Virus genome (UHGV): UHGV-1326494
Strand: one strand, 5' to 3'
Origin: a virus
DNA length: 10,564 nt
Shown piece by piece: positions 1,873 through 10,564 of this stretch. A model generated the notes under the pieces. It was not told the origin of the DNA. It saw only the letters and a program-made list of their open reading frames with translations, and ran no database searches. The translations under genes and the position numbers were made by a program. Position 1 is the stretch's first letter. Every line of letters begins with the position of its first letter.

Positions 1873-2045
1873 TTCCTCGCACGAAGTCTTAGCCACCGGA
1901 TATCCCACAGGTGAGCCGTGTAGTTGAAGGTTTTTACATCAGATTCTTTTGGGATTGGCTTGCGTTTATTTCTGGAGCGTTTCGTTGGAAGGTATTTGCA
2001 GTTTTCGCAGATTATGTCGGTAATACTTCGTCGCTGTCGTCTCAT
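1869..2045 (-). CDS. ninE: NinE-like small basic protein (58 aa)
   Basis: Hand-translated: [61 protein letters not shown] at 2043-2045 overlaps the ninC stop (ATGA). Below ORF-track cutoff. Confidence 0.65.
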
Positions 2046-2887
2046 GCCGCATCATCAAAATTAAATCCAAGCTGACATGAAAATGCTTCACATGATTCAG
2101 AACACGAACCTGAATCATACTGTCGCATTGATGTCATTCTTGAGGCTAACTCATCTCTTGATATATCACTAAACAAGGCAATCAGTGATTTAAGTGTATT
2201 ATTCCCTCGATACATAACCGGTTCCTTTCCTGTTTTTATTTCTGTATCAAGGATGTTGATAAATGCATCTGCAAGTTCTGGCTCATCCATGGCTGCCAGC
2301 GCAACCTTTTGCATACTTTTTTTTATACAGAAAACACAATTACCAAGATGCTCCTGTATGCCAAGATCAAACTTCTGCCCACTCCACCAATCAAGCACAT
2401 CCTGTTTTTCAAAATCGCTTATATCAGCCAGGTACCGAAAACCATTAGCCCTTTTAAGCCTGTTTGGTTCATCTGTGCGAATGCCAAGCCATGTGATGTA
2501 ATTTCCTTTCCCAAACTTTTCCTGACAATATTTGGTGAATGGAACAGACTTCATTCTGTCGGTACAGAACGCACCGCCGATATATGGATGTCCGTATTTA
2601 TTTAACATCCTTTTCCACGGTATAAGATCTGGACCAATATCATTGACACCTATCTCTTCATAACTACTGGCCTTCCCCATTTCTGGATTAGGTATTACAC
2701 GAAGGCAATGTAAGTCTATTTTCCAGTTACTGACGATATTTCGGATGAACTCATATGTTTTAGGGTGCTCTGCCCCTGTATCCATGAAAACGTAATGCAC
2801 GTCTTCACCTGCCTGTCGCTTTTGCTCCATTAGCCAGAGCAAATATGCTGACGTCCTGCCACCTGAGAAACTAACGACATTTATCAT
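2042..2887 (-). CDS. ninC: NinC-like protein, PAPS-reductase / PP-loop ATP pyrophosphatase superfamily (281 aa from internal start)
   Basis: ORF track 311 aa; the first 30 codons overlap the upstream methyltransferase. The internal ATG at 2885-2887 ([17 protein letters not shown], SGGxxS PP-loop) forms an ATGA overlap with the methyltransferase stop. Confidence 0.8.
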
Positions 2888-3411
2888 GCAGCCCTCCTGA
2901 CACCCTGCCCGATCGCCATCAATGCCGCTTTGGATACGGTAGTAAACATCCGTCGAGGACTGATGAACGGTCGCCAAATCAGCAGCATGGAGCCTTTGCT
3001 GTTTCCCTTCTTCTCCAGCCCTGTCGATGGTTCGATAAAATTAATCCGTCCATCAGTGATAATGCGAACTTCGTCGACACTCTCCAGAGCCTTGCTGAAC
3101 CATCCGACTGACATATCCTCTGGCACAAGCATAACTACCGTCTGTCGCTGTTGTATGCACTGCTCAGCGGCTTTTTCCACCCACGGCCTGATATTGCTGT
3201 ACGGTGGGTTATTCCAGATTGCACCGTGGCTTACCCACTCAGAATTGAGCGCGTCGTCGGCCTCAGTTAGCCAGTGAGCACACAGAGCATTTTTGTCGCT
3301 CGCTGCCGAATCCAGCCAGAATCCAAACTCAATATCCAGTGCATCAAAAAGCCAGAGCGGCGTTTGCCAGCAGTCCTTGTCGTGTGCTGGCGTATTTGAT
3401 TTGATAGTCAT
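2884..3411 (-). CDS. Orphan DNA N6-adenine methyltransferase, phage Dam family (175 aa)
   Basis: Translation from ATG at 3409-3411: MTIKSNTPAHDKDCWQTPLWLFDAL...WLDSAASDKNA...WNNPPYS. The WQTP start, D-A-A motif and NPPY catalytic motif are characteristic of phage-type Dam methylases. ATGA overlap with the ninB stop. No restriction endonuclease partner is visible. Confidence 0.8.
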   Translation of the reverse strand: MTIKSNTPAHDKDCWQTPLWLFDALDIEFGFWLDSAASDKNALCAHWLTEADDALNSEWVSHGAIWNNPPYSNIRPWVEKAAEQCIQQRQTVVMLVPEDMSVGWFSKALESVDEVRIITDGRINFIEPSTGLEKKGNSKGSMLLIWRPFISPRRMFTTVSKAALMAIGQGVRRAA

Positions 3412-3848
3412 GCAGCCCGATCTCCCCATCGCGCTTTCCATTCGAGAGCCAGTCGCGCTTCGTCTGACCACTTAACGCCACGCTCTGTACCGAATGCCTG
3501 TATAAGCTCTAATAGCTCCGCAAATTCGCTTACACGCATCCTGCTGGTTGACTGGCCTATTACCACAAAGCCATTCCCGGCAAGGTTAGGAACAACATCC
3601 TGCTGCTTTAATGCTGCGGTAAACACACACTTCCAGCTTTCTGCATCCAGCCAGCGACCATGCCATTCAACCTGACGAGAGACGTCACCAAGGCAAGCCC
3701 AAAGCTTTCGATTCTGGTCTAAGCTGCGGTTGCGTTCCTGAATGGTTACTACGATTGGTTTGGTTGGGTCTGGAAGAATTTGCTGTACTGCGTGAATAGC
3801 GTTTTGCTGATGTGCTGGAGATCGAATTTCAAAGGTTAGTTTTTTCAT
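3408..3848 (-). CDS. ninB: NinB/Orf recombination mediator (146 aa)
   Basis: ORF track 152 aa; start chosen at ATG 3846-3848 (MKKLTFEIRSPAHQQNAIHAVQQILPDP...), which has a purine-rich RBS (GGGAGAGAGGGAAG) upstream. Length and sequence match my memory of lambda NinB. Confidence 0.85.
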   Translation of the reverse strand: MKKLTFEIRSPAHQQNAIHAVQQILPDPTKPIVVTIQERNRSLDQNRKLWACLGDVSRQVEWHGRWLDAESWKCVFTAALKQQDVVPNLAGNGFVVIGQSTSRMRVSEFAELLELIQAFGTERGVKWSDEARLALEWKARWGDRAA

Positions 3849-9606: not shown

Positions 9607-9681
9607 GCGCGGCTTTACCGCATACCAATAATGCTTCACGAGAGGCATTTTCGTTATGCAATCAAATATAAGGAGTTACCC

Positions 9682-9816
9682 ATGATGCACTTTCAGCTCG
9701 CGGGTAGCGGCGTCATGTCCGCTTTCTACCCGCACGAATCTGAATTATCACGCCGAGTTAAACAATTAATCAGAGCAGCAAAGAAACAACTGGAGGCGTT
9801 ATGCGCAATGAAATAG
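9682..9816 (+). CDS. cIII: cIII-like FtsH (HflB) protease inhibitor (44 aa)
   Basis: AAGGAG 6 nt upstream of ATG 9682. MMHFQLAGSGVMSAFYPHESELSRRVKQLIRAAKKQLEALCAMK resembles the lambda CIII core (..AG....PSESLLERITRKL..) as I remember it. The ORF-track version (61 aa) starts further upstream without an RBS. Confidence 0.55.
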   Translation: MMHFQLAGSGVMSAFYPHESELSRRVKQLIRAAKKQLEALCAMK

Positions 9817-9953
9817 CCATCAATCACCAGATGCTTCGTGCTGCACAGAACAAAGCAGTAATAGCCAGATTTATTGGTGATTCCAAAATGTGGCTTGAAG
9901 CAAATAAAGCGATGAAATCAGCTATCAACCTTCCGTGGTATCGCAGGAAATGA
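9801..9953 (+). CDS. kil: Kil-like small protein (50 aa), candidate host cell-division inhibitor
   Basis: ATG 9801 preceded by GGAGG. It overlaps the cIII-like 3' end, as kil overlaps cIII in lambda. MRNEIAINHQMLRAAQNKAVIARFIGDSKMWLEANKAMKSAINLPWYRRK; the FIGD.KM segment resembles remembered lambda Kil. Confidence 0.5.
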   Translation: MRNEIAINHQMLRAAQNKAVIARFIGDSKMWLEANKAMKSAINLPWYRRK

Positions 9954-10028
9954 GTTTTACAGATAACTGGTCAGACGAAGAATTCATTCGTCAGATGAAA
10001 GAATTAATCGGTAACGAAGGAGATATTC

Positions 10029-10199
10029 ATGTCACTTGCAACCACAGTGAAGGAGAGCAAGTTACAGAGACGCATGTACACGCAGCAGGCGTTAATGTAT
10101 CGCCAGAAGGGAGATCGTGAAGGTGTTCGCGTATTTTTAAATGCGGCAAAGACTGAAGTATTAAATCAGCGTTATTTCCTTGGGCCATGTCCATTCTGA
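10029..10199 (+). CDS. Candidate small protein (56 aa) between kil and the annealing-protein gene; Arf-like position
   Basis: AAGGAG (10017-10022) 6 nt upstream of ATG 10029. MSLATTVKESKLQRRMYTQQALMYRQKGDREGVRVFLNAAKTEVLNQRYFLGPCPF. An alternative overlapping frame (9950-10120, 56 aa, ATGA-coupled to the kil stop) is equally possible. Confidence 0.3.
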   Translation: MSLATTVKESKLQRRMYTQQALMYRQKGDREGVRVFLNAAKTEVLNQRYFLGPCPF

Positions 10200-10207
10200 G
10201 GTGAATT

Positions 10208-10564
10208 ATGGATTTGAATAAATTCGATGAGCCATTCAGCCCTGAAGATATCGAATGGCGAATACAGCAAAGCGGTAAAACACGCGATGGCAAGGTGTGG
10301 GCTATGGTGCTGGCTTATGTCACGAACCGGGCAATCATGAAACGCCTGGACGATGTTTGCGGCAAAGCAGGCTGGCGCAATGAATACCGCGATATTCCCA
10401 ACAACGGCGGCGTTGAATGCGGCATATCAATAAAGATTGATTCCGAATGGGTAACCAAATGGGATGCCGCTGAAAACACGCAGGTAGAAGCCGTCAAAGG
10501 CGGTCGTTCCGGTGCAATGAAGCGTGCTGCCGTTCAGTGGGGAATCGGTAGGTATCTGTATAAC
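10208..10564 (+). CDS. Single-strand annealing recombinase, Rad52-like (N-terminal 119 codons; continues beyond window end)
   Basis: GAGGTG 5 nt upstream of ATG 10208. The frame is open to the window end. The ...GAMKRAAVQWGIGRYLY segment resembles the Rad52-family ...A.KRA...FGN.LGN.LY motif. It occupies the position of bet/erf in lambdoid recombination modules. Confidence 0.6.
   Translation, partial: MDLNKFDEPFSPEDIEWRIQQSGKTRDGKVWAMVLAYVTNRAIMKRLDDVCGKAGWRNEYRDIPNNGGVECGISIKIDSEWVTKWDAAENTQVEAVKGGRSGAMKRAAVQWGIGRYLYN

Follow-up and report, generated by a model that had tools for sequence, protein, structure and literature searches.

Two small overlapping reading frames between kil and an annealing-protein gene of a lambdoid phage are probably separate genes

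Between the kil gene and a single-strand annealing protein gene of the virus genome UHGV-1326494, of which a stretch of 10,564 nucleotides (nt) was analysed here (the window), lie two 56-codon open reading frames (ORFs) on the plus strand that overlap out of frame: frame A, from ATG 9950 to TGA 10120, and frame B, from ATG 10029 to TGA 10199, B being read in +1 relative to A. The best explanation, which we consider probable, is that they are two genuine, separately initiated small genes in different frames of the early-left (PL) recombination module of a lambdoid phage. Two 56-codon ORFs within 250 nt would be unremarkable alone, and it is family conservation together with coding-type substitutions that makes the pair more than chance. 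An earlier note on this DNA had held that only one of the frames was likely to be real; instead, each has a conserved family of its own, and each family is found without the other. Both frames are conserved in relatives, in families that extend across phages of Enterobacterales.

Frame B belongs to the HkaM family

Frame B encodes a 56-amino-acid (aa) basic protein, predicted to be a helical hairpin, that matches phrog_1723 over residues 1–56 (E = 4.5e-34), and HkaM of phage HK620 (NP_112046) matches the same profile at E = 3.6e-33. Named members of the family are HkaM, the Sf6 gene 29 protein, HK97 Gp42, mEpX2_035 and WP_000050554.1, and the protein of the window is 100% identical to mEpX2_035 and to proteins of HK022 and HK75. 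A profile search returned 139 homologues at E ≤ 1e-3 across Enterobacterales (hosts Escherichia, Salmonella, Enterobacter, Citrobacter, Serratia, Yersinia, Pantoea, Erwinia and others); most of the members listed measure 56–62 aa, and none carries a Pfam domain. An exhaustive search of 1.84 billion representative proteins with the B profile gave 31 clusters at E ≤ 1e-3, among which no informative domain fusion of B was found. Nine distant or unusually long members were read and proved to be either small standalone proteins with the Pro-Phe end or frameshift artefacts, the last being the explanation of the long matches among them. Across 95 aligned members, A21 and R25 are invariant, and T6, S10, R14, L37, E43, N46, F50, L51, P55 and F56 nearly so. 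The AlphaFold2 model (pLDDT 93.7) has helices at residues 7–27 and 30–49 followed by a seven-residue tail; Foldseek of this model against the PDB gave nothing at E ≤ 0.001, only generic helical hairpins.

Variants were counted in 80 loci chosen solely by their kil protein (the kil-ascertained set). A first IMG/VR scan, made with the B alignment, had yielded only loci with a 100% identical B, which biases counts in the overlap; its loci were therefore used for the A-only segment alone, and the counts were redone on the loci picked by kil. Read in frame B, the B-only segment of the kil-ascertained loci holds 21 synonymous and six nonsynonymous variants (per-site ratio 0.09, P = 3e-9), and the part shared with A holds nine and eight (per-site ratio 0.23, P = 0.003). 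Over the Gly-Asp-Arg-Glu-Gly turn, the DNA of the window differs from that of Sf6 only at third codon positions of B. These patterns point to strong purifying selection on B, which is very likely a real gene.

Two further observations concern the turn region. An 18-nt unit at about 10095–10112 of the window is duplicated in tandem, in frame, in natural alleles. At the A stop, inside B, lies a terminator-like hairpin, CGTGAAGGTGTTCGCG then TATTTTTAAA (10116–10141). The Sf6-type allele has no T run at this hairpin, and HK620 has an annotated terminator, tL2D, inside hkaM. The hairpin could be a tL2-type terminator of the PL operon, or chance (two sites against 1.1 expected).

The N-terminal part of frame A is conserved

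Frame A encodes a 56-aa acidic protein that matches phrog_2123 over residues 1–52 (E = 4e-40), the family of Sf6 gene 30, the N-terminus of HK97 Gp42.1 and mEpX2_036. Residues M1, S2, D5, W7, F12 and M16 are invariant in the family, and the N-terminus is kept in relatives from Enterobacter, Pseudocitrobacter and Salmonella at 37–45% identity. AlphaFold2 gives a single helix (residues 9–23) and a low-confidence tail. The conserved N-terminal helix, MSFTDNWSDEEFIRQM, lies in the part of A that is not shared with B (codons 1–26, 9950–10027, plus strand), which is also the portion that appears to be under selection at the protein level.

The same N-terminus is joined to three classes of tail. One, that of the window and of the Enterobacter type, overlaps a 56-aa B; another, the 60-aa Salmonella type, overlaps an HkaM-type B; the remaining one, the 35-aa type, is very common and runs into the beginning of an unrelated 103-aa gene of RecT modules. 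The manner in which A begins is equally persistent: its start/stop overlap with the preceding gene is retained where cIII stands in place of kil, and takes the form GTGA in a Pseudocitrobacter prophage. An ORF starting in this way was present in all 80 kil-ascertained loci and truncated in two of them.

Between diverged relatives, codons 2–20 of A change mainly at synonymous sites. The proportions of synonymous (pS) and nonsynonymous (pN) differences are 0.97 and 0.18 for the window and Pseudocitrobacter, 0.67 and 0.12 for the Enterobacter phage and Pseudocitrobacter, and 0.45 and 0.24 for the window and the Enterobacter phage; in the other two frames the same diverged pairs have no synonymous excess over these codons. 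Pooling variants of the A-only segment from 138 loci gives nine synonymous changes for 12.3 sites and 16 nonsynonymous changes for 62.7 sites (ratio 0.35, P = 0.014), and their distribution over the three codon positions is 3:7:15 (P = 0.011). This is consistent with moderate purifying selection on the first 20–26 residues, and over these codons A is likely to be a real gene.

Like B, frame A contains a unit that varies in copy number in natural alleles: 21 nt encoding EFIRQMK (9980–10000 of the window), present in two or three tandem copies. Proteins P0124, P0125 and P0091 and locus L151 are the examples of such in-frame duplications in A or B. The 35-aa A-type gene (MSFTDNWSDEEFIRQMNKMLNQHKEQEKDDDSDSE) occurs in Kapi1, SEN22 and mEpX1 (L010, L009 and L011, respectively; 1001–1397), where it overlaps the 103-aa gene by 23 nt. 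This form of A is found on at least 1000 contigs, and the 103-aa gene, which is acidic and uncharacterised, precedes a RecT or exonuclease gene.

The overlap follows frame B

The overlap, put at about 90 nt by the earlier note, measures exactly 92 nt (10029–10120, plus strand) and comprises B codons 1–31 and A codons 27–56 with the A stop. Read in frame A, its variants in the kil-ascertained loci number one synonymous and 16 nonsynonymous. Between the window and the Enterobacter phage, pS is 0.30 and pN 0.46 when the overlap is read in frame A; read in frame B, the values are 0.67 and 0.37, respectively, and changes that are synonymous in B are frequent in the overlap of diverged pairs (pS 0.61–0.97). 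The stop of A falls at different places relative to the codons of B: 26/27 in the Sf6 type, 28/29 in the Enterobacter type and 30/31 in the window type, arising each time where a codon that ends in T precedes one for Asn, Asp or Glu in the B turn. When synonymous re-coding of B was simulated, A tails of at least the observed length were obtained in 18–48% of trials per lineage (P = 0.18–0.48). A natural allele, Gln37*, truncates A and is silent in B. Because variants, diverged pairs, stop positions, simulated tail lengths and the Gln37* allele all agree, the overlap is, on this comparative evidence, coding in earnest for B only, and the 30-codon tail of A is best described as a free run-on. 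With selection inside the overlap on B alone, the arrangement would therefore be ordinary gene packing and not a special dual-coding device.

Constrained dual-coding was accordingly rejected: synonymous sites of B are not suppressed, the A tail is without constraint and the A stop varies by lineage. The suggestion of a true dual-coding segment, made as an alternative in the earlier note, holds in a weak sense at most: in the overlap, substitutions follow B and the A tail is unconstrained. Comparison by codon position, as proposed in that note, shows constraint in both segments of B and in A codons 2–20, and none on A in the overlap. Programmed frameshifting was also rejected, since A stops at three places with differing sequences around the stops; no shared slippery site was seen by eye around the stops across the three lineages. 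The pattern is that of out-of-frame overlaps in compact phages, with one frame (B) constrained and the other free within the limits set by B. No sign was seen that the overlap itself is functional: it has no suppression of B synonymous sites, no conserved end of A and no significant RNA structure, the folding energy of 9940–10215 being no better than that of shuffled sequence (z = −0.89).

Comparison with P22 Arf and HkaM

The earlier note had likened the position of the two frames to that of small accessory recombination genes in P22-type modules, and this likeness bears out: P22 arf sits between kil and erf, the same place as A, and overlaps kil by 11 nt. The N-termini of P22 Arf (MQHEFSDEEFIALISPEIEEEVEQQ...) and A (MSFTDNWSDEEFIRQMKELIGNEGD...) have an SDEEFI motif in common. 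Against phrog_2445 (“Erf recombination cofactor Arf”), A scores a marginal E = 0.042 over residues 5–26, with similar results for two other A-type proteins, and hhalign of an 18-sequence A alignment with five Arf sequences pairs A 6–27 with Arf 4–25 (22 columns, probability 42%, E = 2.7e-4). One public record names a 98%-identical A protein “accessory recombination function protein”. Both proteins are small and acidic, start within the end of the upstream gene and carry [WF]SDEEFI followed by an acidic stretch; their C-terminal halves are unrelated. P22 arf stops where erf begins; A stops within a second small gene, one with no counterpart in P22. On this mixed evidence a relationship between A and P22 Arf seems plausible but is not established. 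P22 Arf “aids in, but is not essential for” recombination, by a mechanism that is unknown (PMC12315714), and its recombination genetics are attributed to Poteete et al. 1991, as cited in PMC12315714.

HkaM shares with B its PHROG family, size, predicted helical hairpin, terminal Pro-Phe and place upstream of an annealing gene. It differs in belonging to a 62-aa subfamily with the tail ...SELPF, while B belongs to a 56-aa subfamily with the tail ...YFLGPCPF (about 33–36% identity), and in preceding Sak4, where the B of the window precedes a Rad52-type gene. According to Hutinet et al. 2018 (PMC5928155), the name “arf” originally given to HkaM was based on its position; the protein is not homologous to P22 Arf and is described as an orphan whose function is unknown. 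Literature searches turned up this study, on HK620 Sak4, for HkaM, and nothing relevant for HK97 gp42 or gp42.1.

In about 150 loci B lies 8–10 nt upstream of an annealing gene from one of three unrelated families, P22-type Erf, Rad52-like or Sak4 (8 nt before the Rad52-type gene in the window), with a single exception in which an HNH endonuclease gene is inserted after B. One allele of B is found with Erf and with Rad52-like genes. Most B-containing modules examined encode a single-strand-binding protein (SSB) right after the annealing gene. B without A occurs in HK620, S9-5, Erwinia phage 59 and a Yersinia prophage. Upstream of B in Erwinia phage 59 is a 49-aa ORF whose DFDFIRALYEM recalls A; no profile supports their kinship.

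One SSB gene of such a module has an unusual end. In mEpX2 (L001, 2817–3323) the protein runs 15 residues beyond the usual C-terminal DDDIPF (...DDDIPFAPVTLPFPRHAIHAI), and the extension matches the C-terminus of the Sf6 gene 26 protein. It looks like a deletion that fused two genes, which would bury the SSB tip.

Alternative explanations

Several observations weigh against two genuine genes, or against a recombination role for them. The coding of A and B is deduced from comparison of sequences, and evidence of translation is indirect. Selection on A is no more than moderate, and the A-only segment of the kil-ascertained subset alone, with five synonymous and 13 nonsynonymous variants, gives no significant constraint (P = 0.17). 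Nonsense or truncated alleles of A exist in nature. In the 856 of 5,426 complete Escherichia coli genomes (about one in six) that contain at least 80% of the 250-nt segment, NCBI PGAP calls B alone or neither frame, and so does not call A. The Arf link is weak because A has no match to Pfam PF17585 (Phage_Arf) even at E ≤ 10 (gathering 27 bits), where P22 Arf scores 121 bits. In HK620, the stimulation of oligonucleotide recombineering by the whole module, hkaM included, is fully reproduced by sak4 and ssb alone, and needs the SSB tail NDYPPF (PMC5928155); a recombination role of the B family is therefore not shown.

Much of this would suit a reading in which B is the sole gene and A a non-functional ORF, its 5' part being kept as DNA or RNA (in a kil-linked mosaic block, or for the ribosome-binding site of B) or through recent divergence. 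The PGAP calls, the truncated alleles and the weak polymorphism constraint on A in the kil-ascertained set all agree with it, as do the unconstrained tail, whose length is as expected by chance, and the junction of the tail classes inside A at about codons 16–20, as for a mosaic boundary. It is harder to reconcile with diverged relatives, which keep the amino acids of A while synonymous sites change, and do so in frame A only, or with the third-position excess in the pooled variants. Moreover, the start/stop overlap of A survives a different upstream gene and a GTG start, the RNA fold is no better than shuffles, and the N-terminal motif is common to P22 Arf, itself genetically supported. We regard A as a mere ORF as unlikely. 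A second possibility, to which we would give slightly less weight still, is that translation of A matters and its product does not: A would be a leader or coupling ORF that brings ribosomes from kil across the B start and tunes B and the annealing gene. Coupling to the upstream gene by ATGA or GTGA is indeed universal, A always enters the next gene (B, an HkaM-type B or the 103-aa gene), and the sequence of its tail varies freely. A pure leader needs no conserved amino acids, yet codons 2–20 carry the mark of purifying selection; B has a strong ribosome-binding site of its own; and since A may reach as little as 23 nt or as much as about 95 nt into the gene that follows, no fixed coupling geometry is apparent.

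The remaining rival, that A and B are halves of one gene whose product would be a fusion about 82 aa long, arising through programmed +1 frameshifting in the overlap or encoded directly as in HK97 Gp42.1, is very improbable. Fused ORFs of 81–83 aa do exist with several junctions, in HK97, in P0109 (36 contigs) and in other assemblies, and those of HK97 and P0109 are independent fusions at the same spot. In HK97 Gp42.1, two single-base insertions join A(1–43) to B(19–56). However, any −1 or +2 indel in the overlap automatically gives an open fusion, since both frames are open there, and other frameshifted variants of B are about as common in the searches that found the fusions. Fusions are a small minority: one of the 80 kil-ascertained loci has one, namely the HK97 genome itself, whose two insertions are found in no other record. 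Most fusions replace the conserved N-terminus of B, including the near-invariant T6, S10 and R14. The three stop positions of A without a common slippery site visible by eye, the free variation of B-synonymous sites in the overlap and the occurrence of A and B each alone also speak against a single gene. We read the A-B fusions as ordinary mutations or sequencing errors and not as evidence of one gene.

The spot itself deserves mention. The P0109 lineage has a complex change, one base shorter, where HK97 has its +2 insertions (ACGCATGTACACGCAG, window 10072–10085; L184/L185 about 720–735); a hotspot for indels, or exchange with a diverged allele, may account for this. The same HK97 module (AF069529, L002 1831–2082 and 2698–3087) has a further peculiarity: its SSB-like gp40 ends in ...YDDSNPILI, where close homologues have ...YDDSIPF, a typical SSB tip. 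Several indel differences within a single module suggest that the reference contains sequencing errors or laboratory-strain mutations.

Proposed roles of A and B

If A and B are two genes, A is probably translated by ribosomes that terminate on kil and re-initiate at the ATG overlapping its stop. The working part of A would be the N-terminal acidic helix of about 20–26 residues, located outside the overlap and similar to the start of P22 Arf; the last 30 codons would be an unconstrained and probably disordered run-on, ending where the sequence of B first makes a stop in the A frame. B would initiate at its own strong ribosome-binding site inside A, yielding a basic helical hairpin with a flexible tail that ends in Pro-Phe. 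By analogy, both may be non-essential accessory factors of phage single-strand-annealing recombination, given their constant position immediately before the annealing gene and what genetics has shown for P22 Arf. Because one allele of B sits upstream of unrelated annealing proteins, B would be expected to act on a shared partner, for example the host or phage SSB or its clients; a specific annealing-protein fold is a less likely target. Nothing in the results suggests a new kind of mechanism.

A more elaborate proposal, in which A and B form a two-part accessory system for recombination by annealing proteins, we hold to be unlikely. The Pro-Phe of B would mimic the SSB tip (...DDDIPF in E. coli, ...NDYPPF in the SSB of HK620) and dock into the same partner pockets, and its basic hairpin would be bound by the acidic, Arf-like helix of A. 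The SSB genes that follow the annealing gene in most B-containing modules favour such a system, and were it true, the A-B fusions that recur in nature would count as “Rosetta stone” hints of interaction. Counting against it, the tail of the 56-aa subfamily is not acidic, A and B each occur alone, and the fusions are explained by trivial indels. No precedent for the SSB-tip idea was found in the literature on SSB-tail mimics.

Organization of the locus

The window covers an immunity, replication and early-left region, and the two frames lie in its early-left operon. Genes for cII, an O-like initiator, a DnaB-like helicase, NinB and NinG lie on the minus strand, and the repressor and the PL operon on the plus strand. 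Across 965 bases around A and B the window is 98–99% identical to mEpX2, mEp235 and HK75. The kil gene (9801–9953, plus strand; Pfam Lambda_Kil, E = 1.7e-20; phrog_2055, E = 1.2e-35) ends in a TGA at 9951–9953, to which the A start is joined as ATGA, and the extents given for both frames in the earlier note agree with ours. Frame A has no well-spaced ribosome-binding site of its own. The ORF listing takes A back to GTG 9935, which is not usable as a start in those relatives in which A follows cIII and not kil. The site of B, AAGGAG (10017–10022, plus strand), was recognised before and is read from the sequence inside A, 6 nt 5' of the B ATG. B had been thought to end just before the ribosome-binding site of the annealing gene; in fact its stop shares bases with this site (GAGGTG, 10198–10203, plus strand, likewise read from the sequence), so that B ends inside it. 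The annealing protein gene, of the Rad52/Rad22 type represented by Sf6 gp28 (Pfam Rad52_Rad22, E = 2.3e-23) and annotated as such in mEpX2, starts at ATG 10208 on the plus strand; its 5' part occupies 10208–10564 and reading continues past the window end. An antisense ORF of 88 aa (10027–10293) was set aside because the substitution pattern fits the plus-strand frames.

Upstream of kil, the 61-aa cIII ORF of the mEpX2 annotation (start 9631) begins within a terminator-like hairpin (9630–9649), the equivalent of which is marked as a putative terminator in HK97. With this start inside a hairpin and an AAGGAG (9671–9676) before ATGATG 9683, the 44-aa cIII of the HK97 annotation is therefore the more likely product.

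Distribution and annotation

Both genes are already known from public genome annotation: they were annotated as overlapping genes in mEpX2 (mEpX2_036 and mEpX2_035) and Sf6 (genes 30 and 29), and as two overlapping hypothetical proteins in HK022. Identical copies of A are present on 166 public contigs, and identical copies of B on at least 1000. In RefSeq phage records such as NC_019705 and NC_002730, PHROG-derived labels call phrog_2123 and phrog_1723 proteins “recombinase”, a name for A and B that nothing in their size, fold or literature supports.

Lambdoid recombination modules are a source of recombineering tools. Arf and HkaM are among the few genes of these modules without a molecular function, and a real accessory role would be useful. 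The value of the present analysis is mainly for annotation, in that A is tied weakly to P22 Arf and B to HkaM, and the selected part of each is mapped. It also defines single-base knock-outs that are silent in the other frame, T10030C for B and C10058T for A.

Elsewhere in the window, a PAPS-reductase-like ORF (2042–2977, minus strand, 311 aa, TTG start) and a DNA-methyltransferase-like ORF (2884–3471, minus strand, 195 aa, GTG start) share about 94 nt in the ORF listing; both probably start further downstream in reality.

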